A DNA stretch of 51,304 nucleotides, taken from positions 54,027,618 to 54,078,921 of the forward strand of contig NC_057718.1 in NCBI RefSeq assembly GCF_004010195.1. The letters run 5' to 3'. Both the position numbers and the translations under genes were made by a program. This document shows, piece by piece, positions 2,813 through 49,700 of the stretch. How positions within the stretch are numbered: position 1 is the first letter of the stretch; every line of letters starts with the position of its first letter. The stretch is from Chiloscyllium plagiosum (taxonomy: Eukaryota). The notes beneath the pieces were generated by a model, which was not told where the DNA came from, searched no databases, and was given only the letters and a program-made list of their open reading frames with translations.

Positions 2813-3348
2813 NNNNNNNNNNNNNNNNNNNNNNNNNNNNNNNNNNNNNNNNNNNNNNNNNNNNNNNNNNNNNNNNNNNNNNNNNNNNNNNNNNNNNNNN
2901 NNNNNNNNNNNNNNNNNNNNNNNNNNNNNNNNNNNNNNNNNNNNNNNNNNNNNNNNNNNNNNNNNNNNNNNNNNNNNNNNNNNNNNNNNNNNNNNNNNNN
3001 NNNNNNNNNNNNNNNNNNNNNNNNNNNNNNNNNNNNNNNNNNNNNNNNNNNNNNNNNNNNNNNNNNNNNNNNNNNNNNNNNNNNNNNNNNNNNNNNNNNN
3101 NNNNNNNNNNNNNNNNNNNNNNNNNNNNNNNNNNNNNNNNNNNNNNNNNNNNNNNNNNNNNNNNNNNNNNNNNNNNNNNNNNNNNNNNNNNNNNNNNNNN
3201 NNNNNNNNNNNNNNNNNNNNNNNNNNNNNNNNNNNNNNNNNNNNNNNNNNNNNNNNNNNNNNNNNNNNNNNNNNNNNNNNNNNNNNNNNNNNNNNNNNNN
3301 NNNNNNNNNNNNNNNNNNNNNNNNNNNNNNNNNNNNNNNNNNNNNNNN
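2813..3348. other. Assembly gap (536 N)
   Basis: Run of N. Confidence 1.
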
Positions 3349-11034: not shown

Positions 11035-11480
11035 ACACGGGGAGTCCAGAACTAGAGGGCATAGGTTTAGGGTGAGAGGGGAAAGATATAAAAGAGACCT
11101 ATGGGGCAACGTTTTCAGAGTGGTAAGTGTACATAATGAGCTGCCAAAGGAAGTGATGGAGGGTGGTACAATTGCAACATTTGAGAGGCATTTGGATGGG
11201 TATATGAATAGGAAGGGCCGGGAGCTGGCAGGTGGGACGAGATTGGATTGGGGTATCTGGTCAGCATGGAATTCTCCTGTTCCCTAGATGCTACATAATG
11301 AGCTGCCAAAGGAAGTGATGGAGGCTGGTACAATTGCAACATTTGAGAGGCATTTGGATGGGTATATGAATAGGAAGGGCCGGGAGCTGGCAGGTGGGAC
11401 GAGATTGGATTGGGGTATCTGGTCAGCATGGATGAGTAGGACTGAAGGGTCTGTTTCCATGCTGTACATCTCTATGACTA
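11035..11480 (+). mobile_element. CR1 3' end containing a 141-bp tandem duplication
   Basis: RGERYKRDLWGN...NELPKEV...FERHLDGYM. 11130-11270 is repeated at 11292-11432. Confidence 0.9.
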
Positions 11481-18565: not shown

Positions 18566-19104
18566 TTAAAAATATTTTTGATGCAAACAGATATCTATCA
18601 GCAAGAGATTAATTATATTCAATTTAACAACTGAGTGAACAATATGTACTGTACCCATTTTCAGTTTACTTCAGTTTGAATTTCCACTGCATTGGAACCT
18701 GAGCAGCAAAATCTGCTGTTTCCTTCAATTTGAAGCCAATTGTCAGATGCTGAGGTGTGACAGATCCCCAGATCTGAACACTGGCACAGAGCAGTTAAGA
18801 ACACGCTGAACTACAATTGGAAAACAAAGCAAAGTAAAGCCAGTATAATATGTGAAGGGTGGCTGATTAGCTCAGTTATTAGTCAGAAAATGGAACAAGT
18901 AGTCATCAACCAGCTCTGACAATCCATGTTTCAATGGAATTAAACTCCGAAACTGTCTCCTCACTGTGCCTATTAAAATGTTAGAATGCTTTGCCACAGT
19001 TCAGCAATCAATTGTCCTACCTTCAGGCAGTGATCTCAAGCAGAAATATGTAGAAGAGCTAACAGACAATTGAGGAAAGTTAGGCCATATTAATCAAGCA
19101 TCAC

Positions 19105-19547
19105 TTGAGCTGTTGAGGAAGATAATAACAGAACATTTGCAAAATCAAAAATCTGATCAGGCAAAGTTAAAAATCACAACCCCAGGTTATAGTCCAACAG
19201 GTTTAATTGGAAGCACAAGCTTCTGGTGTGCCAATCCATCAGGTGGTTGGTGAAGGAGCAGCGCTCCGAAAGCTAATGCTTCCAATTAAACCTGTTGGAC
19301 TATAACCTGTTATTGCGTGATTTCTAACTTTGTACACCTCAGTCCAACACCGGCATCTTCAAATCCTGATCAGGCAAAGTCAATATGGCTTTGCGAAAGG
19401 GAAATTCTTTTTAACTAACTCATCTGAAATCTGAGGATGCAACAAGCAGGTGGATAAAGGGGAACATTTAGATACGGTGTACTTGAATTTTCAGAAAGCA
19501 TTCAACAAGGTGTCACAATAAAGTCTACTACACCAACAAGAGCTCCC
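19105..19547 (+). mobile_element. Old CR1 RT fragment, left half of a split element
   Basis: QSQYGFAKGK...LDTVYLNFQKAFNKVS, stopping abruptly after AAGAGCTC. Confidence 0.8.
19168..19365. mobile_element. Palindromic PLE insertion (second family) with 15-bp TSD
   Basis: CTGATCAGGCAAAGT at 19153-19167 and 19366-19380. Inverted arms CCAGGTTATAGTCCAACAGGTTTAATTGGAAGCA / TGCTTCCAATTAAACCTGTTGGACTATAACCTG. Partial hammerhead GGAGC-AGC-GCTCC-GAAAGCTA. Confidence 0.8.
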
Positions 19548-20034
19548 ACATCATAAGTGCTTCTGACAGGTCATCTCACTGCCAGCTTATGACCCCTCAT
19601 TGCATGCATACTAATCACCATACCACCACATGAATTCTGCTTTCAAAAGCCATCAAGCTAGAGAAGACTTCATGCTTTTAAAACAGGCTTTACCAGCTTG
19701 TTGCATCATGTTTCTGTTTGGCCCTGATAGATTGCAGTAAGTTTTGTGGTGGCGACATGAACAAGTTAATAGAAAATTAGTTACTGATGCGTAAATTCAG
19801 CATATTACAATTATAGAGTTTCAGTTTGTGGTCAGTAATTTGCTCATCTTTTAGGTAGTTCAAATCACCCCTAGATCCCTAGTTCTAGACACTGGACTTA
19901 TTTAGGGAATGTGAAATGAAGATTACAGGTATTTCAGGGCAAAATAAGCTCTGTGTTTATTAAATACAAAACATAAGTAAGTATAATACAAGAAATAAAA
20001 GCAAATGTAATAAACAGTGAATTGACAAGTGACT

Positions 20035-21435
20035 TTTCAGAGGAAATAATTAAATACACTATTAAATTAAACACAGGTTAAAACACTATTAGAAGCTAAA
20101 CAGCAGTTTTAATCACAAACTTTAATCAAGCTTCCTACCCTGTCACAACCCACCTTCCGCTGCCTGCGAGGCAGCTGGGAAACTTTGGGGTTTCGGGAGT
20201 TTCAGCTCACCACTGGGGAAAACATGGTTTTGAAGTAATGGTAGCTATTCCTGCTTGCTGTACCCAGTGCCTCGAAGACAACTTCAGACGGTGTATGCCT
20301 TCAATCTGGGTGAAGTTTGCTGAGGTGATTGGATGCATATTGAATTTATTAGGTAAGTACTTGGTTTTCCTCACTTTCTGGTGATTGTGCAGGCCCGGTT
20401 TTCACCTCAGGATGTGCCTAAGGCCTTGTGGCGGTGGTTGGTTAGTGCCTTTCAGAGGTTGTCAGTTCTCAGGTCTGTAGGTCATAGTCGGTTACCATTA
20501 GTTCCACTGGGGTGGAACAGAACGGTGTTGATAGGTTTGCAATTGCTGTCAGGGTCACCCTTCCAGAGATACCCCTTGGAAATAGTCACTGTAATTAGTG
20601 TTGGAACTTTTCTTCTGGGAATAGCTGCCAGAGGATCACTCTCATGGAGATAACTCTTTGGGATCCGTCTTCTGCAGATAGCAGTGGGGGTCACTCTATA
20701 GATGAGGTTGGAGCCTGCAATTATACTGTTTGTGATCCTTTGATCTTCACACCAAATCTGCACTTGCCATGGTGCTGCTGCTGCTGTTGTCAATTGGCCT
20801 CCCAGTAGTTAACAAGTATTTGAAAATATATTTTGTCGAGATTGAATGCCTGATATCTCTGACAGAATATTGATTGAAGTTGAATTTTTGGTATCTGTAT
20901 AGGTTCCATCATGCCTGGGCCGGGTAGTCAGAGATGTAAATGTTGGTTTCAGTCAAGAGCGAGAGGTCTGGCTGATTGTTCTCAGAGTGGAGGTTCAAGT
21001 TGGATTTTTGGTCTGAACAATGTCCCAGACTGAAATCATTCTGGCTCAGTGTGTGTATTTGTTGCAGCTGGGAGTTCAGGTTTTTGTTCAGTATTTGAGG
21101 TTAGAAAAGTCCAGTGTCTTGGTCCAATGTTGTAGAATGTGGGGATTTTTGTTCAATCCTACACAATACTTAAAGCATAGGAGGCTAGTCAGCCTATCAG
21201 ATCAGTGTGGAATTGATGCAAGAGCACCTCAGCTGGTTCTGTTTCTGCTTCTCTACTCCTTCTCTATGGACCTGCAGTTTATATTCTTCAGCTGTTTATG
21301 TAGTAGGTCCACGCAGGATGAAGAAAAGTTACAGGTAATGCTGCCGTGCCCCATATCCAGTACCCAAAATAGGCAAAGCAACCAGGGATGCCGGAAACAA
21401 ATTGCGACCACAGAAATGACCTTCTGTATCTCCAC
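20035..21435 (-). pseudogene. Decayed intronless gene: possible signal peptide, Cys-rich segment, Ser/Thr-rich linker and trypsin-like (S1) protease domain
   Basis: Collinear minus-strand motifs across frameshifts: LLGGQLTTAAAAPWQV (from 20808), HC (20686-20681), VLFHP (~20510), DYDL (20489-20478), CTIT (20391-20380), AG...KPC (~20225), GRWVVTG (~20150). AATAAA on the minus strand at 19961-19956. Confidence 0.7.
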
Positions 21436-22046
21436 ACTTGATCAGCAGCCAGCAATGTTCTGGTATGTTCCGGAGGCATGTGTTGTCGTGGAATGACATC
21501 ACAAACTACAAGGTGAAGCAATAATAATAAGTGATGAACCTGGACTACCCGAAAAAAATCCAAAAAATGTACAACTTCCACACGGTACGGGAAAATATGT
21601 TTCTGTTCACAACTGTAAAAGACAGGAGAAAGTGTTTGCCTGATATGTCAAAGTATATCAAGTAGTAAATAGGGAAATTTGGAACAACTCCACAGGTTGA
21701 TGCATAGTAAAGTCAAGGATTGTTTACCCCAGAACAACATGCTTTGGACAAATGAAGTTTACGAACTGAAGGCCATTTTGAAAGGTCAACAGTCATTCTT
21801 TTACTAAACCCGCAGCAAAAAGGTTAAGATCTGCACCGAAGAATCATTTAGTGTTTCCCACCTTCCAGCAAAATACAAAGAAGTCATTCATGGCTGACAA
21901 AGTAATTACAGAAGCAATGAACGTGGCTGCTATCTCTTTATTCAACGAATTTAAGAACAAAGAACAAATAACAGCAATTCAGTGCATATCATTGAATGCT
22001 TCCACAGTAGAAAGAAACTAGCTTCTCTTTTGTGTTTAATTTTATT

Positions 22047-22390
22047 GGCAGCAGAGTGGCTTATCGTACCAGAGACCCAAGTTTGATTTCAGCCTGGGCT
22101 GAATATCTATATGGAGTGTGCACATTCTCCCAGTGTCTGCAGGAGTTTCCTCTGGATGGTCCAGTTTCCTCCCACAGTCCAAAGATGTGCAGGTTAGGTA
22201 GAGTCGCTATACTAAGTTGTCCTATCATGTGCAGAGATGTGGGTCATTTACAATGGGTTAGCCACAATAAGTGCAGAGTTATGGGGATAGAGTGTGGTTT
22301 GGGAATAGGTAGGATGCCCTTTTGGAGGGTTGGGTCAGAGTCAATGGGCCTAGTGGTCTCTTTCCATGCTGGAGGGATCCTATGATTCTA
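22047..22390 (+). mobile_element. Older tRNA-derived SINE inserted in hAT
   Basis: Core GTTTCCTCCCACAGTCCAAAGATGTGCAGGTTAGG and a CTATGATTCTA tail. Confidence 0.85.
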
Positions 22391-23174
22391 AAAGCTGAGT
22401 GGATACTTTTCATAAAGGCACCTTTCAGGAACTACAAGAGGACCTGCAGTATTATGAATGCTTATCACTGTAGTTCGATAAATCTATTGACATGACAGAC
22501 AGAGTTCAGCTGATTGTTTTCTTGTGTATGATGTTTAAGGACATAATTTCTAAAAAGAGCACAGTGATGGTTCCTCACAATACATTTTCATTTGATTTCC
22601 CCTCTCATCAGTTACCGCAGTATAATACACTAGCAAGCATTATGGAGTAAATTTATGGACTTTTCTCATAATTTGATTTGAACAAAAGTCCTTTGGCTTA
22701 AATGCTTACTCAGCAAACTTGATGCTGCCTATGGTAAAAAAAACTCTCCACACTGATGTGAGGTGGTTATGTTGAGGGAAGATTCTGGAAGGATTTTGAG
22801 ATCTGATGTCTGAAATTATCACTTTTAAAACCCCAAGGAATGACTTGAGCAGTGAGCGGTCAGATAATGAGTGGTTGCTTACAGACAGAATGGTAAAACT
22901 GCATGAGCTAAACTGTGAACCGCAGAGATAGAGCAGAGACTTGACACTTGATCAGTGCAGCAAATGCATTCAACTTGAACCTGGGTCTGTAGTCCTCCCA
23001 AATTAAAAATAATCACTGCAAAATTTCCTGAGTCTGGAGAAATGCCAGAAAAAAATTCAAGTCAAAATGATTCCTCTCAGAAAACTTCTGTGCAGAACTG
23101 AGGACATTATCAGAGAAATTCAACAGGTGATTTTAGAAATTGCATGTGATGGAACAAATCATCAAGTTTGTGGC

Positions 23175-24640
23175 ATCCTTAAATACAGGTGAAGTGCCAG
23201 AGGACTGGAGGGTTGTTCATGTTGTCCCCTGCACAAGATGGGTAGTAGGGATATTCCATGTAACTACAGACCGGTGAGCCTGACGTTGGTGGTGGGAAAG
23301 TTGCTGGAGAAGGTACAGAGGGATAGGATCTATATATATATCTTTATATTTAGAAAAGAATGGGCTTATCGGTGATAGGCAACATGGTTTTGTGGGGGGA
23401 GATCATGCCTTACCAACTTAAAGAGTTCTTCGAGGAAGTGACCAAGTTGATAGATGAAGGAAGGGCTTTTGATGTCATATACATGGACTTTAGTAAGGCA
23501 TTTGATAAGGTTCCCCATGGTAAACTAATAGAGAAAGTGAAGTCACATGGTGTGCAGGGTGTTCTAGCTAGGTGGATAAAGAACTGGATGAGCAGCAGGA
23601 GACAGTAGTAGTTGAAGGACGTTTCTCAAAATGGAGAAAGGTGACCAGTGGTATGCCACAGGGGTCAGTATTGGTGCCACTGTTGCTTGTAATATACATA
23701 AATGATCTGGAAGAGGGCACTGTTGGTATAATCAGCAAGTTTGCAGATGACATGAAGATTGGTGGAGTAGCAGAAAGCATAAGGGACTGTCAGAGAATAC
23801 AGGAGGATATTGATAGACTGGAAAGTTGGGCGGAAAAGTGGCAGATGGAGTTCAATCCAGACAAATGTGAGGTGATGCATTTAGGCAAGACTAATTCTGG
23901 AGCGAATTATACAATGAACGGAAGAGCCTTGGGAAAAGTTTATGGGTGGAGAGATCTGGGAGTGCAGGTCCATTGTACCCTGAAGGTTGCTGCACAGGTG
24001 GATAGAGTGGTCAAGAAGGCATATGGTATGCTTGCTTTCATTGGACAGGGTGTTGAGTGCAAGAGCTGGCAAGTCATGTTAACATTGTACAAGACATTGG
24101 TTCGGCCACATTTAGAATACTGTGTACAGTTCTGGGCACCACATTAGCAAAAAGGATGTGGATGTTTGGAGAGGGTGCAGAGAAGGTTTACAAGGATGTT
24201 GTCTGGTATGGAAGGTGCTAGCTATGATGAGAAGTTGAGTAGGTTTATTTTCGTTAGAAAAAGGAGAGATTGAGGAGGGACCTGGTTGAGATTTATAAAG
24301 ACAGGATGGATAGAGACAAGCTTTTTCCCAGGGTGAAGGATTCAGTAACGAGGGGTCACATTTTCAAGGTGAGAGGTGGAAAGTTTAAGGGGGATACGAA
24401 GCAAGTATTTCACACAGAGGGTGGTGGGCATTTGGAACGCGTTGCCAGCAGAGGTGGTAGAGGCAGGCACGGTAGATTCATTTAAGATGCATCTGGATAA
24501 ATGCATTAGTAGGTGGGGAATAGAGGGATGCAGATGCTTAGGAATTAACCGACGGGTTTAGACAGTAAATTTGGATCGGCTCAGGCTTGGAGGACTGAAG
24601 AGCGTGTTCCTGGGCTGTAAATTTTCTTTGTTCTTTGTCT
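23175..24640 (+). mobile_element. CR1 LINE ORF2 (RT) and 3' end, relatively young, nested in hAT
   Basis: DFSKAFDKVPH, GMPQGSVL, KFADDMKIGG, WQMEFNPDKCEVMH, LVRPHLEYCVQFW. Confidence 0.95.
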
Positions 24641-24704
24641 CAGTTTGGTGGGTCACCCATTACGGAGTTCAAACCTATAATATTCCAACAGCACGAGATT
24701 GGGA

Positions 24705-25052
24705 ACATCCTTCTTGTGTTTACCCTATGATTGGAGAATCCAGAATGAACAGTTACAGTTTAAAGTACAGGATGTGTCCTTTAGGATTAAGAGGAGGAGA
24801 AATTTCTTCACCCAGAGAGTGGTGAGCCTATGGAATTAGTTATCACGGAACGTGATTGAGGCCAAAAAACTTTGAATGTTTTTAAAGGAGGAGTTAGATA
24901 TAGCCTAAAGCTCTAAAGGGATCCAAAGGATTTGTGGAGAATGCAAGAACAGGGTACCGAGTTGGATAATCAGCTATGATTATATTAAATGGTGGAGCAG
25001 GTTCAAAAAGGGCCAACTGGTCTACTCCTGCTCCTATTTTCCAAATTTTTAT
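24705..25052 (+). mobile_element. CR1 3' fragment nested in hAT
   Basis: GAGAAATTTCTTCACCCAGAGAGTGGTG and a 3' UTR ...AATGGTGGAGCAGG...CTACTCCTGCTCCTATTT. Confidence 0.85.
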
Positions 25053-25519
25053 GTCAGTTACCAAATGCCATCAGGTGTCTGAAGTACAAAATCAGTGGAA
25101 TTGCTGTGGAGATAATTATAATGCAAAATGATATTGAGCTGAATGTCAGTTCAGGGTACATTACGAGTCCCCAGGAATCAAACAGAAAAATACTCACTCC
25201 TTTCATCCTGGTCTTTTAAATTGAAAGCTTACTTTGACTCCACCACTATGAGACAGCATTCCCCCCAGTGAAGATAATCAAGTCCAATTACTGTACTGAC
25301 CCCACAGATCATTTGATAGACTGTATCAAAGAGTAAACTCCAACTACAACCCAGGCACTGACAGATAGCCTCAGTGTGACACTTGTGACCACACACTAAG
25401 TAGAGGACAAAAAGGAGTTATTAAATAAGTTCTTCAATCTATATTTTCTTTGGGGTAAATCCTAGGTTTCACCTAAAATCAAGATCACACTTTGACATTA
25501 AGAAGATCGGAGACTACCC

Positions 25520-26335
25520 GAGGAAAGGAAATAACGTATTAGCATGGCGAGAGGATTCGTTAGCTAACAGGAAGCAAAAATAAATGGGTTCGTTTTTGGG
25601 TTTACAGACTGTAACTGGTGGATTGCCCGAGTGATCAATGTTAGGGGCTTAGCTACCTGTGTTTACAATACGTTTCAGTAACTTGGATGAGGGGGACAAA
25701 CGTAAGGCAGTTACAAAGATAGGTGGGAAAGTAAGTTGTCGAGAGCAAATAAAGAATCCACATTGGGATTTAGATAGGTCAAGTAAATAGGCAAACATTT
25801 GGCAGATGGTATATAATGTGAGAATATGTTAATTTGTCCATTTTGGCAGGAAGAAAACAGAAAAATAATTCATTACTTTAATGTGAACAGTCTGCAACAT
25901 TTTACATTTTAGATGCCCTGTAATATGAATCACAAAAACGGTAGCATGTAGGCACAGGAAGAGATTAAGAATGCAAAATGGAATTTGGCAGTGAATGCAA
26001 GGGGAACCAAGCACTGTATAAAATTGGGAAGGATAAAGTAGGCTATAGATGTCTGCTGAAAGGCTTTTACCCATTGTGAGGAAGTCCAGAAATAAGTGAT
26101 ATATTCAAAATTAGGGGTTTCCCCATTTAAGACTCAAACGAGGACAATTATTTTTCCTCAAAAGGGTCATCAATCTGTAGAATGATCTTCTGCAGAGAGT
26201 GGTGTAGGCAAATCAAGAATTCCAAGAGGTGGACAGAAAAGTGGAGTTAAGGCTAGTTTCAAATCAGCCACAATCCTTTCAAGTGGTAGAGCAGGCTTGA
26301 GGGAACAAATAGCCTACTCCAGCTCCAAATTCTCA
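25520..26335 (+). mobile_element. Old CR1, right half continuing 19105-19547
   Basis: Starts AACGTATTAGCATGGCGAGAGGATTCGTTAGCTAACAGGAAGCA (NVLAWxExWLxNRKQ), the segment expected directly after the left half. Ends in a CR1 3' UTR. Confidence 0.75.
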
Positions 26336-26714
26336 TGCAGTCAATGGGAAAAGATGTGCATGTCATCATGTTCAGATCTTGAATCAGTATTTTTGAGCTG
26401 GTTCAAATAATTCAGAATAACTAACAAACATTGGATAGCCAATCTCTTCTTGCTAGAAATGTGAAGAAATAAATTCAGAGAAGTTTCTAGTGCCTTTGTT
26501 AATAATTTTATCAATGAAGTATTAATAATGCAACCTTCAATATCAATATTTTGCACATCAATTAAAACTTCAGATTTCCAAAATAAAAGGAGAGAGAGAT
26601 ACATTAACACACTATCCTCCATTACGTCAAATTGTTACAAAACCCCTTTTAAAAATCTAGTTTTATTGTAAAAAAAAAGTGTAGTCATTGACACATTTTA
26701 ACATAAAACAACTT

Positions 26715-30345: not shown

Positions 30346-32624
30346 CCTGTTTTTGTTTTCTTTATTTGACTTTGGCATCGTTGGCAAGTCCAATACTTGA
30401 CAGAATGTATATAAAACCATATTTGCAAAACAAAAAGGAGGGATTGATAAACTCTGATGGAATTAATGTAATAAAACCATCCATTAGAAGCATATAAATA
30501 TCTTGTTATAAGTGAGGAAGAAATGCTTTCACAGTGAAAAGACCCCTTTCAGGATGATGTTGTAGTTGCAATAAAGACAGGATTCCTGAATTAAATTGGT
30601 CTATTTGACGGAGCCCTTCACAATACCCGAGTTGGAGACTCTCAATCTGTACCAGTATCATGGAGAGATTTTCCACTCTACACAGAATCATGTTTTGCAA
30701 CATAACCGTAAATACTTAAATCAAAATTAATTATATATATATATATAATATTTCTAACATTAAAAAGTAGTAATGGATATAATTCATTTAATAGAAATTT
30801 CCAACTTATTGGTTCAATTTATTCAAGCCTCATTTCATCAGTTAGTGGAGTTATATTACAGTCCTTTGTTTATAGGAAGGTTGAATAAAAATGAGAATTT
30901 GGTACAATGAACCATCAAATATCCCAACCAAATGGCTGGTAACATACCAAATGTTTTGAATTTTAATCAGAAGTCTTTTTTTCCCCCCAAGTGCTGCACG
31001 ACAAAGTGATGTGAGAATCATAAATTAAAAATAAATCAGAAAGTGAAACATAGGCCTTTTGATCAAGACTTTCATAATTAGCTCATTGATCAGCACGTTG
31101 CAGTATTCTCTTGGCAATTATTACCTTATATAATAGTTCAAACATAAAAAAGGTAACAAACAATTAAAGATGTTTATTCTTCAAACCTATATTTTCTAAT
31201 TACTTCTTGGAGATATCAGTATTAGATGCTCAAATTTGGATTATTGCATTAAAGCAAGAAAACAGACAAACTTGAATTTACGTAGCATTTTTACATCCTC
31301 AGAACATCACACAAGTTAGTACATTTGACATCCAGTTTCTTCTGTTATGTAATCAAACACAATTAGGAGCCAACTGAATCCTACACACCATTGCGATAAA
31401 TAATCCAGTTAATCTATTTTGGTAGTGTCACTGTTATATATCATAGTGATGTAAATATTAGTCAAGCATAGCATCCAAACGTTAATCAGAAGAATTGTCC
31501 TCCTATTAGAGCATGAAAACTGGCTTAAATGTGTTTCTGTAGAGAGTTCAATTATAGCTGCACTCAATAAAATGATGCCTGATCACAGCTTGATTTTTCT
31601 TATCATGTCAGAGACACTATAGTTGGGACTTAATTGGCTGCTCTTACAAAATGGCACATCTGAGCATGTTACAAAACCAGACTTTAAGCACCTTCAAACT
31701 TCCAGCTGGTGACAGTCTTGTTAATACGTGACAGATGAGTTTATGAAGAAAAACGTTAAGCTGCTGTAATGGTAGTCTATAGCAAAGCCTATAGTCAATA
31801 CACACAGATGAGTGTCATAGTTACATAATCATCCTGACATGAACATATGAAAGTCTGCTCTTATGACGGCCAATGGGCTTTATTTAATGAGAATCCTTAC
31901 CATTAAGGTTAGCATTGCACTCACATTGCTTGCTGTATACTGAAAATATTACTTAATAAACTTTGTTTCTCCACTTTAATGTTTAAATGGTTTCCCATAA
32001 ATGAAATGGCAATAAGATCAGATATCTGGAGTAAGTACTATACTGCATTTTTTTTTTATCATTACCACTCCATCACTAATTCACCAAATAGAAAATGGGC
32101 ATGGAATATCACTGAAAATAAATGACAATATACTGAACAGATTGCAATAGAATTGCCTTTCCAGTCAAGCTACATTATCTGTAGCTCTTCCAGACAAATT
32201 AATAGATAGCCCTGTGAAAAGTGGCCAGCTGGTATCTTTCTCTAATCCTGAAGGCACATCACTTTAGTCAACTTTCCAAATCATTATACATCCAAAAGAA
32301 TGTTCAATCTACATATTACAAGTGAAAGGAAAAAATTGTTTTCAAGACTGAGCTAAACGGATTATCTTCAAACATTTGGAGCACTTTTACTAAACTTGAA
32401 AGAGAAAGACTTTCTTCCAAATAATTCTTTTTCCATATCTGTTACAATATTTCTGATATTATTGGAGTCTTGTATGAAATCATTTGTACAATTTTGAATT
32501 CATAAGCTGTGCCTCTAGTATCAGTTCCAATTGGCTTGATGCGACAACTGTCTGTATGTCATTATCAAACCCTGGAGCAATCACTATCGTCATTACTAAC
32601 ATTCAATTGCCCTTTCTGAAGTGT

Positions 32625-32817
32625 ACAAAGTTAAAGATCACACAACACCAAGTTATAGTCCAACATGTTTAATTGGAAGCATGATTGTCACCACCACCTG
32701 ATGAAGGAGCAGCGCTCCGAAAGCTAGTGCTTCCAATTAAACCTGTTGGAATATAACCTGGTGTTGTGAGATTTTTAAACTCTGCGCACCCCATTCCATA
32801 CTGGCATCTCCAAATCA
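32625..32817. mobile_element. Palindromic PLE insertion with 12-bp TSD
   Basis: TTTCTGAAGTGT at 32613-32624 and 32818-32829. Inverted arms of the same family as 19168-19365. Confidence 0.8.
32695..32729 (+). ncRNA. Minimal type I hammerhead ribozyme (second family)
   Basis: Stem I CAC/GTG, CTGATGA (32698-32704), stem II GGAGC/GCTCC, GAAA, palindromic AGCT, predicted CUA cleavage triplet ending at 32726. Confidence 0.75.
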
Positions 32818-36181: not shown

Positions 36182-36998
36182 CGATTTGGAGGTGCTAGTA
36201 TTGGACTGGGGTGTACAAAGTTTAAAAAAAAAATCACAACATCAGGTTATAATCGAACAGGTTTATTTGGAAACACTAGCTTTCGGAGCACTGCTCCTTC
36301 ATGTGTTTGTAAACTTTTGCTCTAAAACTCTGTGCCTTACAGTGTGATGTAACAAATTATATATTGAAAAAGACCTGGATTGTTACGTCTCTCATCTTTT
36401 TAGAATGACCATGTTGGTTTCAGTTCATTTCACATAGTTCTGGGATTTACATAAGTTACGCTCTCAAGTGAACCTTTAACAATAGGTGCCATGTCAAGTC
36501 AGATAATGCATTGAAGGTGTGAGGTGCCCTGCTTGAGGCATTATCTGAGCTGACATGGCATCTATTGTTACAGTTCACTTGAGAGCGTAGAAAAATGTTC
36601 TGGGATTTACATAAACTGCCGTCAAGTGAACTTTAACAATAGATGCCATGTCAGCGCAGATAATGCCTCACGGCAGGGCACCTCACACCTTCAATGCATT
36701 ATCTGACTTGACATGGCACCTATTGTTAAAGGTTCACTTGAGAGCGTAACTTATTAAATCCCAGAACTATGTGAAAAGAACTGAAACCAACATGGTCATT
36801 CTAAAAAGATGAGAGACGTAACAATCCAGGTCTTTTTCAATATATAATTTCAGTTACATCACACTAAACTTTTGCTCTAAATTCTGCACCTTGCAATCTT
36901 ATACTCCACAATCACTTGATGAAGGAGCAGGGCTCCAAAAGCTAGTGCTTCCAAATAAACCTTTTGGACTATAACCGAGTGCAGCAGGATTTTTATCT
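36182..36998. mobile_element. Complex PLE insertion built from nested inverted repeats
   Basis: Outer inverted pLTR ends. Inner arms 36341-36582 and 36622-36865 are near-perfect reverse complements. Candidate TSD TTG(A/G)ATACTTA at 36171-36181 and 36999-37009. Confidence 0.75.
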
Positions 36999-37087
36999 TT
37001 GGATACTTATGGCACACAGCTGGGCCAGTGAACCCATAAAGGTCCAGGTCCACGTCCCAAAATAGGGACAATAATCAGTGTTACAAG

Positions 37088-44105: not shown

Positions 44106-46361
44106 CACTTTAATCAGTTGTGTGTGATTTAATGTGGTTAACAAATAATTTGAGTATACCTAATTAAAGTCAAGCTAGCTTCTTCAAAGTATATAATTCC
44201 AATACTTCAGGTTCAATAATCAAGACCAGAAAACTGATCAATGAATAATCAAACTTGATCAAATGTGATCAAGTAAAACAAGACGTTTCTCCAATAACAA
44301 AAGATTATTTAAGTAACAAAATGACAGAAATATTGTTATACTTATTAGAAACAGAAGAGAGACAAAAGTGGCCAAAACCTGACTTATGAACAGGAAACTT
44401 CTTCATTCCTCAAGATAAAACTCCTCCAGTTTTCAGGCTGACAAAAAGTCCGTGATGAAATATAACCAAAAACTACCTTCACTTGGATGGATAGAAATCC
44501 CAGTCTGAGGCATGACCAAATATCAACTGCCACAGATATATGCAGAACTCTCAAGTGATTTCATTTAAATTTAATTTAAATTCATATTAAAATGTTCATA
44601 TCCTCTTTGTATAAAACCTCCTTAATTGAAAAGTTCAAATATAAATTGCTATTAATATGGTAATAGTCAATTTGGTTGCATCTGATCATAAGCATACGTG
44701 GACTCTTACCCCAAGGACATGAAGCATTTCATAATGTCCACCTTATCTTTAAAATGAACAAATAATTATTCAGAAGTGTCCCTGTATCATAGGGCCAAGG
44801 TCAGTGTTATAAATAAGATGCTAGAGGTGCTTCCCTCAATCAATTCCCATTGTCTGTTTACAGCAATATATTTTTTTTTTAAATCATTTTTGGCAGAGAT
44901 TTGAGGAATGCATTTTCTCTGGTTCCATTACTCGACCCATAACACATATTTAAAAAGTGTTTTACCAATTATATGTTAACTCATCTAATTCAAAACTAGT
45001 AAGCCAGTTGGATTTCTTTCATAAAGAAAATTATTGATTTATACTGAAGGAAGACTTATTCAGTGAAGGTGCAAAGCTTATTAGCACATAGTTTAAACTA
45101 TATCCACACCATTTATAATAATTACACATGTGCACACACAAGTAAAGAAACTTTCTTTGCAGAGATCAACTTTACAAAAACAAAAAGATTCACCACATAA
45201 TTCTTGAAGTTGAAATGGTAAGATACGAAGTGTTCCAGATAACTTTTGGTTTAGAAAAAGGAAAAGGATCCAAAAAAAAAGTGTTTTTAGTAACTAAGAA
45301 AAAAAAATGCCATGCCTCCTCAATATTTCAGATGAGCCAGTTTTCACCATCCTTTAAAAGGAGTCCTAAACAAACTGGAAATGCCTTCAAACTATACAGA
45401 GGGCAAATAATTTAATTAGTAGAAATTAATAAAAATATGACATTCATTTAATTGTGATTAGCAATTAATTATCCTTCAATTGCAGTGTAATTACCATGCT
45501 TCTTCTAGTACTGTTGTAGTTGCTTGCTACTCAATTTTAATTTGTCAATGTCAAGATAATGTGACTGTGTGGCAGTGTATAATAGTTTCTTTCAAATATG
45601 TTGCGCTCATATATAAATGGCATCTTGGCCTTGTTAGACTACTAGAATACATATGTTCGTAATAACCTCCAAAAGTTAGCAGATTAAGCAAACTAAACCT
45701 TAAATCTAGAATTGAAAACTTTGATTTACTTATAGTTAAGTACTGCTGAGTAAATGCAAGGCAAGAGACAAAAGAGAAGACTAAAATGAGTCTTTGTTAC
45801 GACTCAGTCATGGTGAAGGGAAGTTTTTTTTCCCCCCCAGTTAAATTGATAGTATTTTCAACTCATGTACTGCACTGGCAGAACCCTCAATTTAACTTTA
45901 CATACATGGCATCTGGTTCCTTCAAAGTTATATTGAAGATCAACATTTTTATTAACTTCTTCTGCATATCTATACAAATCTCAGTTTTTGTTCCCTCCTT
46001 TTATCTTGCTTCCCATATGTGATTTAAAGTTAAACTTATACTACATGGTTTACACCTTGGAAGAAGTGACACAATGCAGATTTGTAGATTTCCCAGGATA
46101 AGCAGGTCCACCTGGTCTTCTTCATTTACATCAATGGAGAGTGGTCCACAGGTAGCAGCTCAAGTACTTCCACCACTTGGAATGTAACATGAGTTTACTG
46201 ATCTTCTGCAATAGGTGAGACTTGTACCTGGCCCTCCAGGCTCAGAAATAATAACACCATCACTGAGGCAGAGGCAGCACTATGGTGAATGCATTTCTTC
46301 CTTGTATTTCCCAGTGAAGAATCTTCAATATTACTTTTTGAAGAGAAGATTAATTAATACA

Positions 46362-46555
46362 AAGTTAAAAATCACACAACACCAGGTTATAGTCCAACAG
46401 GCTTAACTGGAAGCACTAGCTTTCGAAGCACCGCTCCTTCAAGCAGTGTTCCGAAAGCTAGTGTGCTTCCAATTAAACCTGTTGGACTATAACCTGGTGC
46501 TGTGTGATTTTTAACTTTGTACCCCAGTCCAACACCGGCATCTCAAAATCATGAC
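46362..46555. mobile_element. Palindromic PLE insertion with 11-bp TSD
   Basis: TAATTAATACA at 46351-46361 and 46556-46566. Inverted arms meet inside the hammerhead stem II region. Confidence 0.82.
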
Positions 46556-46756
46556 TAATTAATACAGTTAGCCAAATGACTAGGGTGGTTTTCACAACAA
46601 CAATAACAGCTTGGGTTCAATTCCCAGAAGGGCTGAGGCAGACTTAATACCACAAATTCCAACTGACACAGTACAGTAGCGCTCCACAACACTGAGGATG
46701 TCACTTGGCAAGAGGACAAAACTTCGGCAAAATCAAATTCCAAGCTCGATAAGCAT

Positions 46757-49700
46757 ACAGAACATAAGAACTAGGAGCAGGTGTAGGCCATCTCACCTTT
46801 CGAGCCTGCTCTGCCATTCTATAGGATCATGGCTTATCTTTTTGTGGACTCTGCTCCACTTATTGGCCTTCTCACTACATTCATTTATTCTTTATTGTTC
46901 AAAAAAAATCTACCTTAGCTTTAAAAATATTTACTGAAGTAACATCAACTACTTCACTGGGCAGGGAATTCCATAGATTTACAACCCTCTGAGTGAAGAA
47001 GTTCCTTCTCAATTCAGTCCTAAATCTGCTCCCCCTAATCTTGAGGCTATGTCCTCTTGTCCTAGTTTCACCTGCCAGTGGAAACATCCTCTCTACTTCT
47101 ATCTTATCTTCCTTTCACAATTTTATGTTTCTATAAGATCCCCCCTCATTCTTCTGAATTCCAATGAATATATTATAATCCCAGTGCACTCAGTCTTTCC
47201 TCATAAGCCAACCCCCTCAACTCCAGAATCAACTTTATGAACCTCCTCTGCACCTTACCAGTGCCAGTACATCCTTTCTCAAGTAAGGAGACCAAAACTG
47301 AACATAGTACTCCAGGTGTGGCCACACCTGCACCCTGTATAGCTGCAACATAACCTTCCTGCTTTTAAATGCAATCCCTTTAGCAATGAAGGACAAAATT
47401 CCATTTGCCTTCTTAATTACATGTTGTACCTACTGACTAACCCTCGGGATTCATGCACATGGACACCCAGGTCCCTCTGCGTAGCAGCATGCCGCAACTT
47501 TTTACCATTCAGGTAATTTTTTTATTTTTTAAAAACTATTACTCCTACCAAAATGTATGACTTCACATTTTTTAACATTTTACTCCATCTGCCAGACCCT
47601 TTGCCCATTTACTCACCGAATCTATGTTCCTCTGCAAAGTTTCACAGTCCTCTGCACACATTGCTCTGTCACTCATCTTCGTATCATCTCCAAACTTTGA
47701 CACACTGCATGTGGTCCCCCAACCCTAAAACATCTATGAATTGTGATTAATTGCAGTCCCAACACTCATCTCAGAGGCACACCATTAGTTACTGATTGTC
47801 AGCCCAAATAGCACTCATTTATCCCCACCCTTTGCTCCCTATCCTCTACCATATTAATACTTTACCCATAATGCCATGCATCTTTATCTTGTGCAGCAGC
47901 CTCTTATGTGGCACCTTGTCAAAGGCCTTTTGGAAATCTAGGTATACCATGTTTACTGGGTCTCCGTTTTCCAACTTGCTCATAATATTTTCATTGAATT
48001 CCAAAATATTTGTTAAGCATGACCTGCCCTTCATGAACCCATGCTGCATCTGCCCAATGGGACAAGTTCTATTGAAATGTCTTGCTATTTCTTCCTTGAT
48101 AATAGACTCAAGCATCTTCCCCTCTGCAGAGGTTAAGCTAACCAGTCTATAATTCCCTATTTTTTGTCTACCTCCCTTTTAAAACAGTGGCATCACATTT
48201 GCTGTTTCCCCATCTGCTGGAACTGCCCCACATTCCATTGAATTTTAGAAAATTAATACCACTTGCTATTTCTCCTGCCATCTCTTTTAGTAGCCTGGGA
48301 CACATTCCATCAGGGCGAGGAGACTTGTCTATCCTTAGCTCCACTCTCTGGTCCAACACTAGCTCTTCCATTACAATTACTTCCAGGTCCTCACATACCT
48401 TAGTTTCTGATTAGTGTTCTCCACTGTGAAGACCGATACAAAATACTTGCCATTTCATTACATCCCATAATTAAATGCGTCTTTTCATCTTATAAAAGGA
48501 TGAATGTTTACTTTAGCTACACTATTTCATTTTTAATATATTTGTAGAAACTGTTACTATCTGTTTTTATATTCTGTACTAGTTTTTTCTCATTCTATCT
48601 TACTTTTCTTTATAGCTCTTTTTGTGGGTCTGTTGATCTTTAATATTTTCCCAACCTTCTAGATTCCTGCTGTTTTTGGCCACTTTGTATGCATTCTCTT
48701 TCAATGTGATAGCGTCCCTTATTTCTTACAACACGAATGGCAGATTACCCTTTTTCTTACAGTCCTTCCTTTTCACTGGAATATACTTTTGCTGAGCACC
48801 TTGAAAAATTGCTTTGAAAGTCCTCAACGGTTAGTCAACTATCTCACCATAAAATCTTTGTTTCCAGTCTACATTAGCCAAGAACTCCCTCATTCTATTG
48901 TAGTCGCCCTTGTTTAAGCACAGGACCCTGGTGTTATATTTTATCTTCACACTCTCCATCTGTATTCTAAATTCAACTATACTGTGATCGCTCTTTCCAA
49001 GAGGATCCCTATCTATGACATCATTATATATTCCTGTCTCATTACACAGGACCAGCTCTAAGATAGCTTGTTCCCTCATTAGTTCCATTACACACTGTCC
49101 AAGAAAACTATCGCAGATACACTCAACAAACTGCTCCTCAAGGCTACACTGACCAATCAGCATTTAGATTAAGAACCCCCATGATTATTGCCATGCCATT
49201 TTTACAGACATTAGTTATTTCTTTGTTTATTGCCCAACCCAATGTGATGTAATATTTGGTGGCCTATAGACTGTGCCTATCAGTGACATTTTCTTCTTAG
49301 AATCTCTAATTTCTACCCAAACGAATTCAACCTTATTCTCCATAGAACCTATATCATCTCTCAGCACCATCCTGATGTCATTCTTAAATATCAGAGCTAC
49401 ACCAACTCCATTACCTTCCTGGCTGTCCTTCCGAATAGTCCGATTCCCCTGGATATTTAACTCCCAGCGGTGACAACCCTGTAACCAAGTCTCCGTAATG
49501 GCTGCTAAATCATATTCATTTGCAATGATTTGTGCTGTTAACTCATCTACCTTGTTATGAATGCTACGAGCATTCAAGTAAAGTGCCCTTATGCTAGCTT
49601 TCTTAGCATCATGATTTCCAACATCTAATAAAGTCTCCTGAGTTATCCTTCCTTTTTACTTCTTCATAGCCTTGTACTTAAACGCTCGTGCACACGTGCT

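Follow-up and report, generated by a model that had tools for sequence, protein, structure and literature searches.

Introduction

Buster-clade hAT transposons (TcBuster, SPIN, AnBT) carry terminal inverted repeats (TIRs) of 14–16 bp and normally measure 2.5–3.0 kb in total, with a 5′ region of 240–500 bp in an active element (PMC12637253). Transposons with passenger sequences are exemplified in animals by Pack-hAT-N8_XT, which holds a 291-bp piece of CAPSL, and in plants by KI-MULE with a protease; for the Pack-TIRs of that report, TIRs, distinct duplications and a parent gene are all shown (PMC8277862). Among retroelements, fish and chicken have many LTR-mediated retrocopies (PMC5131818), and crocodilian endogenous retroviruses (ERVs) that captured the mRNA of KIT-ligand or nectin3 have been described (PMC4299795).

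Here we analyse a window (the whole stretch of DNA studied, 51,304 nucleotides of the Chiloscyllium plagiosum genome) in which one CR1 copy is split by a block of ~6 kb. A preliminary description had raised the possibility that this block is a hAT transposon carrying a protease-like gene. We find that it looks like an ordinary stack of nested repeats; a gene-carrying transposon is not proven. No such element was described in the titles and abstract starts covered by our literature search, which falls short of most subscription journals and of Repbase.

Results

The block interrupts a CR1 copy in exact register

The left half of the old CR1, belonging to the RT region, lies at 19045–19547 (+) and is ~63% identical to CR1 copies in the window. 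It is itself split by a palindromic repeat of ~200 bp (19153–19380) that has copies elsewhere in the window. At 19153 and 19366 stand the two identical copies of a 15-bp duplication that flanks this repeat. The right half lies at 25520–26337 (+), is internally deleted, keeps its 3′ tail and likewise aligns to CR1 copies of the window. As the reference for the junction we used the window copy at 47780–48050 (–), three other window copies being weaker or misregistered. Against this reference the left half stops at base 173 (window position 19546) and the right half begins at base 187 (window position 25532). The 13 intervening reference bases are supplied by 19547 and 25520–25531, therefore no gap separates the halves. 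The earlier observation that the RT sequence ends at ~19547 and resumes at ~25520 is thus confirmed, as is the collinearity of the two halves, and the later arrival of everything between them is supported.

In the register fixed by CR1, the 8 bp at 19540–19547 (+) match those at 25512–25519 (+) at five of eight positions (binomial P-value ~0.03), the best of nine registers. These may be the two copies of a decayed target-site duplication. The preliminary description had recognised neither a 5′ TIR nor an 8-bp duplication: the former statement holds, while for the latter there is now a candidate. No inverted match between the block ends exceeds chance, and TIRs of 14–16 bp may have decayed. One 13-bp inverted pair inside the block, at 19887 and 21119, scores 26, where the highest null score is 25.

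A relative diverged by ~4% (runs X14 and X20) also carries the block at the same site, so that the empty allele whose search had been suggested was not seen. The whole stack is older than the split from this relative.

A nearly complete but dead hAT contains further insertions

The block had been described as protease-like cargo plus the start of a hAT transposase. A transposase indeed starts at ~21534 on the plus strand; its N-terminal part (21534–22030) is frameshifted, and the segment 21782–22018 scores 0.95 against FAM200/ZBED5 RNase-like clusters in Atlas (185 of 256 features). By sequence we assign it to the FAM200/ZBED5-type transposases of Buster-clade hATs. The earlier content list is otherwise too short. 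A SINE follows within the transposase (22040–22390, +; 75–84% identical to several window copies, very high depth), and then a frameshifted stretch at 22390–23165 (+; 4–6× depth) that we take, from its frames and motifs, to be the transposase middle part. Next come a 5′-truncated CR1 of 1.45 kb (23170–24620, +), supported by window copies and two RVT_1 matches (E-values 3e-12 and 1.5e-4), and a second CR1 3′ piece (24640–25040, +) that aligns to the 3′ end of the copy at 46700–49700 (–). The transposase C-terminus, which the earlier list lacked, resumes with its stop codon at ~25065–25400 (+), presumably, as recognised by eye from motifs in frame +25040. The hAT is nearly complete but dead and frameshifted. 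The transposase ends 110 bp from the right end of the block, leaving a hAT 3′ end of ~110 bp (25400–25511, +) for which no TIR partner was found.

Pfam gave no match for the decayed transposase frames, the middle and C-terminal parts included, PDB gave none for the C-terminus, and homologue searches with the N-terminus gave no usable match. Scanning DNA for motifs of a reference Buster transposase returned either no loci or 30 prokaryotic loci unlike the block.

Segment X is a multi-copy repeat with one LTR-like end

Within the 2 kb that precede the transposase lies a segment on the minus strand, which we call X, spanning from ~19.6 or 19.9 to 21.4 kb. With X the hAT 5′ region measures 1986 bp, and without it would measure ~400 bp. 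The left end of the block (19548–19850), with no recognisable TIR, is presumed to be either the hAT 5′ end or the end of X. The most repeated part of X (19850–20225, –) is AT-rich, LTR-like or 3′-UTR-like, and has an AATAAA signal at 19961–19956 on the minus strand. A purine-rich tract adjoins a 238-bp stretch (19910–20147) with TGTGA...TCACA ends. The polypurine tract, TG...CA ends and poly(A) signal, all within 19910–20160, were picked out by eye without a chance control, and the ends are 5 bp long, so that chance could give them. Neither 19548–20200 nor 19910–20147 has a further copy inside the block that could serve as a second LTR; a truncated LTR element would be compatible with a single LTR-like end. 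No primer-binding site or target duplication was found around X, and no retroelement protein in any frame (Pfam, PDB).

Several candidates were rejected. An LTR of 585 bp with a 7-bp inverted pair (19564/20147) at its ends fails at base 19570, which differs in the relative and in one same-species contig and thus shortens the pair. A Gypsy integrase reading of the minus strand, made by eye from motifs, was backed by no retroelement family, rve included, in six frames and by no PDB match. Echoes of a tyrosine recombinase, a LINE endonuclease and Ig-like domains, also seen by eye, had no library support.

The upstream part of X (20809–21450, –; 6–16× depth) has coding-like 3-base periodicity (P-values 0.017–0.07) in the same register as the trypsin-like trace described below, and no Pfam or PDB match. 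Homologue searches with X gave no usable match, and Rfam gave two matches at chance level. X is a mid-copy family for which the searches made found no named relative.

X holds a weak, decayed trypsin-like trace

The preliminary description had read a protease-like gene from the minus strand. It is not a gene: the best of its frames contains 16 stops over 443 codons, the other five 10–25, and measurable likeness to S1 proteases is confined to the first 36 codons. The trace (20140–20808, –, one frame without introns) opens at 20808 with LLGG, eight residues and PWQV, an arrangement matched once in 300 whole-window shuffles, and weak echoes (GSNLI, TAIC, HPS, TDL, ICI, TGYS, EGG) follow in the same frame. 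TAIC stands where AAHC is expected, GDSGG is absent from the three minus frames, and there is no intact His or Ser motif.

The trace may instead be a chance motif picked by eye in an unclassified repeat, such as the non-conserved part of an LTR element or of a LINE, nested as described below. Pfam, PDB, a collection of 5.8 billion proteins that includes shark S1 proteases, and 1.84 billion representatives returned no match; tblastn with 120 S1 proteins gave no E-value below 0.02, and chance matches elsewhere in the window were as good or better; together these searches identified no parent non-TE gene for X. An S1 profile chosen independently of the motif fails to detect the trace or gives 19.4 bits, below the shuffle maximum of 20.0. 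A single-sequence AlphaFold model has a pLDDT of 31.9, and base composition suits two other frames about equally. Against chance stand the rarity of the opening motif in shuffles and the borderline signal downstream of it, which was reached by 0–3 of 60 nulls in each of six settings. The N-terminal score of a PWQV-selected profile is circular, since the profile was chosen on that motif; the downstream test leaves the motif out of scoring. An hhalign alignment with the PWQV-selected profile extends to the HP motif (E-value 6e-4, probability 29%), and for a query without LLGG the top named family in Atlas was trypsin (0.83, lead level). We consider the chance reading rather improbable and lean slightly towards descent of the coding trace from an S1 (trypsin-family) protease.

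Depth hints at separate multiplication of X and the transposase

Depth was taken as summed contig depth relative to single-copy sequence in three DNA runs and is not a copy number. It reaches 55–67× and 56–64× in the two bins covering 19606–20307, falls over the remaining bins of X (15–24×, 10–16×, 6–9×) toward its 5′ end, and is 4–7× over the transposase body; the left part of X (19.6–20.3 kb, ~60×) is thus up to ~10-fold more repeated than the transposase. Long contigs stop at 19873/19887 and restart at 20195, with indels and joints common to 3–24 contigs; they break nowhere else except, in the relative, at 20890–20919, and run unbroken across the hAT right end (25110–25855). The end of X therefore has exact 30-mers in common with other loci, and that of the hAT has none. 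Among the contig joints listed (15 of 1610), CR1 predominates. Reads of both species show the protease-like segment as multi-copy, in support of the earlier proposal that no ancestral single-copy locus of the host is involved.

These depths bear on whether X was hAT cargo. One Buster family could have had a 2-kb passenger ahead of its transposase, in divergent orientation to it, and the two could have spread jointly as a Pack-hAT, a type known in multiple copies in frog (PMC8277862). X does lie inside two block ends that fit a single insertion with a possible 8-bp duplication. Depth falls across the X/transposase boundary gradually (6–9×, 8–13×, 4–7×), with no step, which counts against nesting, and the profile is U-shaped, bin 25222–25572 being high as well (28–49×, though 53 bp of it are CR1). 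Deletion derivatives of a cargo element would be expected to produce such a pattern; those keeping the left end would explain the high left depth, and bins 19606–19956 and 19957–20307 are nearly equal in all three runs. However, in the relative's run X14 both the left 20 bp of the block and position 19570 are at single-copy level, the shared 30-mers belong to the end of X, no TIR pair was found, and the same hAT has received three other nested inserts. Together with the tenfold contrast, which favours a separate nested retro-type repeat, this leaves cargo unlikely. Less probable again is an ancient shark Buster-type family whose 5′ region housed an intronless gene for a divergent, secreted trypsin-like protein and which dispersed this gene to tens of loci. 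X and the hAT could also be adjacent, the true hAT 5′ end lying at ~20.9–21.5 kb or being deleted and X having entered the CR1/hAT junction. Two observations fit such an end: at 20921, 9 bp match the right end of the block exactly in inverted orientation (12 of 15 bp overall), and contigs of the relative break at 20890–20919. A match of this size is, by our estimate, expected by chance among ~78,000 comparisons, no duplication lies beside it, depth is above single-copy on both sides, and two events at one CR1 base would be demanded. This we judge very improbable.

Discussion

We favour, with a probability of about 0.55, a Russian-doll stack in which CR1 was followed by the hAT and then by the SINE and CR1 pieces, with X as a fourth nested repeat. 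Nesting of X is favoured because three proven insertions already lie in the same hAT, and because its 5′ region without X is close to that of active Buster elements. The history would begin with the old CR1 LINE seen at the site. A Buster-clade hAT would then have entered its RT region, one cut-and-paste event setting both block ends; for this step the CR1 register is established, and the sequence of the duplication is only suggestive. The hAT then died and received the SINE and the two CR1 pieces visible in it. Finally, an independently multiplied retro-type repeat, X, may have entered the hAT 5′ non-coding region in minus orientation. A retro-type origin is favoured by the intronless frame, the AT-rich tail with AATAAA, and the purine tract beside TG...CA ends. 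The likeliest identity of X is a non-autonomous LTR element that has been truncated, or else a family of retrocopies. Its interior would be a decayed coding sequence that lacks introns and probably derives from the mRNA of a trypsin-family protease. Nothing in the block is functional. Of the two routes offered earlier, carriage of the protease-like segment by the hAT is so far unsupported, and the better fit is an insertion of its own into the hAT 5′ region, given the depth contrast, the three nested inserts and the single-copy left end of the block.

In the most likely case, the locus is a further example of nested transposon decay, and perhaps one of mRNA capture by shark retroelements, and is useful mainly in repeat annotation. 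If transposase and protease did travel jointly, a kilobase-scale protein-coding passenger would join the few vertebrate multicopy Pack-TIRs, and a vertebrate DNA transposon would have held a whole protease passenger oriented away from its own transposase.

Compared with described Buster hATs, the element here has a FAM200/ZBED5-type transposase with ~1.6 kb of coding remnants, a short 3′ end and a possible 8-bp duplication, and differs in being dead and frameshifted, in lacking a detectable 14–16 bp TIR pair and in its 1986-bp 5′ region. As in Pack-TIRs, non-transposase sequence lies between the ends of a block, here bounded by in-register CR1 halves; unlike them, the block has no demonstrated TIRs, distinct duplications or parent gene, and its passenger X is itself multi-copy. 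The trace resembles S1A proteases (PF00089) in its IVGG-like start, eight residues, PWQV and later weak echoes in the right order, and departs from them in having no Pfam match or intact His/Ser motif, ~45 extra residues and many stops. With only one LTR-like end and no retroviral genes, parent gene or intact frame, X is unlike LTR retrocopies and the crocodilian ERVs. Like them, it has been multiplied and places an intronless coding stretch of host-like character next to an LTR-like end, and, as in an LTR element with captured mRNA, it is multi-copy with its terminal part over-represented (~60× against 6–24×, as depth and not copy number).

Primary insertion into the CR1 copy

The left (19045–19547, plus strand) and right (25520–26337, plus strand) fragments of an old CR1 have the same best alignment, a CR1 copy at 46700–49700 (minus strand) of the window. 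On this reference the left half stops at base 173 and the right half begins at base 187, the intervening bases being exactly accounted for. The halves are thus in exact register and were split by one primary insertion, the ~6-kb block at 19548–25519, as the preliminary description had proposed. The octamers at the two junctions, 19540–19547 and 25512–25519, are identical at five positions (P ~0.03; best among 9 registers, and the register fixed by CR1); across 9 bases at the CR1/block junctions, 6 are identical (P ~0.01). This points, if modestly, to a target duplication of the hAT type that has since decayed. The left half has its own palindromic insert bounded by an exact 15-bp duplication; further copies of the palindromic repeat (~200 bp, 19153–19380) lie near 32616–32816, 36183–36301, 36907–37001 and 46358–46554.

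The block had been described as a protease-like part plus a hAT element. The transposase start stood (~21534, plus strand, six-frame reading); the two-part content did not, as six-frame reading and self-comparison show many more parts. Feature-based protein family scoring (Atlas) of the stop-free stretch 21782–22018 against FAM200/ZBED5 RNase-like clusters (0.95, 185 of 256 features) places the transposase, as judged from sequence, in the Buster clade. Within it lie, all on the plus strand, a SINE (~22040–22390, self-comparison), a CR1 (23170–24620, RVT_1 matches) and a second CR1 3′ piece (24640–25040, aligned to the window CR1 copy), followed by the C-terminal part (~25065 to near 25400). 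The middle and C-terminal parts, for which Pfam and PDB searches gave no match, we take to be transposase from motifs recognised by eye; coding remnants total ~1.6 kb. Since Buster-type transposase resumes and ends ~110 bp short of the right end of the block, the hAT is the primary insertion, and therefore the 1986 bp at 19548–21533 belong to its 5′ region. Searches at the block ends found no TIR pair, in agreement with the preliminary description. The nesting shows that the CR1 came first, that the hAT entered it, and that the SINE and two CR1 pieces then entered the hAT.

In reads of the same species (X1) and of a relative ~4% diverged (X14), single contigs span both junctions of the block with the CR1, as well as the boundary between the transposase and segment X, the multi-copy minus-strand stretch ahead of it (~19.6/19.9–21.4 kb). 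In a second run of the relative (X20), contigs span this boundary and the right-hand junction. The nested stack therefore predates the split of the two species. No empty site was seen in reads of either, and where an unoccupied site in a related shark had been envisaged, both runs of the relative show a filled one.

Nature of segment X

Depth was taken in three runs relative to six single-copy bins; summed depth is not a copy number. It was 55–67× at 19606–19956, 56–64× at 19957–20307, then 15–24×, 10–16× and 6–9× onward to 21360, 8–13×, 4–7×, 4–6× and 4× after 21360, across the boundary and over the transposase, and 28–49× at 25222–25572, a bin with 53 bp of CR1. Position 19570 is single-copy in X14. 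Long contigs break off at 19873/19887 and begin again at 20195, and the hAT right end is crossed without a break. Among the joints listed (15 of 1610), ~20100 is joined to 20178 in 2–6 contigs per run, and none concern the X/transposase linkage.

We favour X as a fourth nested repeat in the hAT, with a probability of about 0.55. The most heavily repeated stretch of X is an AT-rich end that carries AATAAA, has TG...CA ends and adjoins a purine tract; from there representation declines to the 5′ end of the segment, a pattern like that of a retrocopy family or a truncated LTR element. We do not class X as an LTR element because neither a second LTR nor a duplication flanking it was found. That X is instead cargo of the hAT (a Pack-hAT) is unlikely; this explanation survives because depth passes the X/transposase boundary without a step and is U-shaped over the block overall. 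A hAT carrying X as cargo with a protease in it is considerably less probable again.

Contigs of both relative runs break at 20890–20919, beside a 9-bp exact inverted match (20921) to the right end of the block that is probably due to chance. Just ahead of the transposase lies a 159-codon open frame (21017–21496, plus strand) without a notable Pfam match; its frame has the fewest stops in X (10 of 443 codons), and it could be an antisense shadow.

The protease-like trace

A minus-strand frame from 20808 reads LLGG, 8 residues and PWQV, with weak echoes of trypsin-family (S1) protease following in order to ~20140. The strict motif, picked after being seen, occurred once in 300 whole-window shuffles. 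Trypsin was the top named Atlas family (0.83, lead level). S1 profiles built from 119 metagenomic loci selected on PWQV (78 distinct N-termini, 36 full domains) match 20808–20701 only (E-values 5e-4 and 3e-3); hhalign with 28 of these 36 full domains extends to the HP motif (E-value 6e-4, probability 29%), the other two frames giving 0.12 and 0.82. When PWQV was left out and the alignment was anchored just after this motif, the score was equalled by 0–3 of 60 nulls in each of six settings, and 3-base periodicity is present at 20448–20747 (P-value 0.003).

The trace had no match in Pfam, PDB, 1.84 billion representatives or a collection of 5.8 billion proteins, which contains shark S1 proteases. 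A profile of 53 S1 sequences picked on the Ser motif missed it or scored 19.4 against a shuffle maximum of 20.0, and tblastn with 120 S1 proteins gave E-values of 0.02 or worse, with chance matches elsewhere as good or better. Overall, S1 origin has slightly better than an even chance. The sequence is dead whatever its origin and no gene, as it had been called: the frame holds 16 stops in 443 codons and no intact His or Ser catalytic motif, and its predicted structure has a pLDDT of 32.

Other features and comparison with known elements

The window is rich in CR1 and SINE copies and looks intronic or intergenic; a Pfam scan of 17 longer ORFs across it recognised no host exons. A near-perfect inverted repeat at 36354–36850 (96-bp arms, 99%; 82-bp arms, 100%; 140-bp loop) suggests either a foldback element that inserted recently or an artefact of the assembly. 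An N run of 536 bp (2813–3348) lies between 166-bp inverted arms (93%), and a tandem duplication of ~141–162 bp (99% identity) lies at 11130–11432 inside a CR1 3′ end.

The preliminary description is thus partly confirmed in observation and partly supported in interpretation: what lies here is a pile of decayed repeats nested in one another, and one of these, unclassified and of middling copy number, may contain the remains of a trypsin-like sequence. Zebrafish retrocopies were LTR-mediated in 5 of 7 informative cases (PMC5131818), crocodilian ERVs with captured mRNAs are known (PMC4299795), and multicopy Pack-TIRs, among them a frog hAT, are seldom seen in animals (PMC8277862). Active Busters measure 2.5–3.0 kb, with TIRs of 14–16 bp and 8-bp duplications, and the left end of AnBT is 500 bp (PMC12637253), whereas the 5′ region here is 1986 bp.
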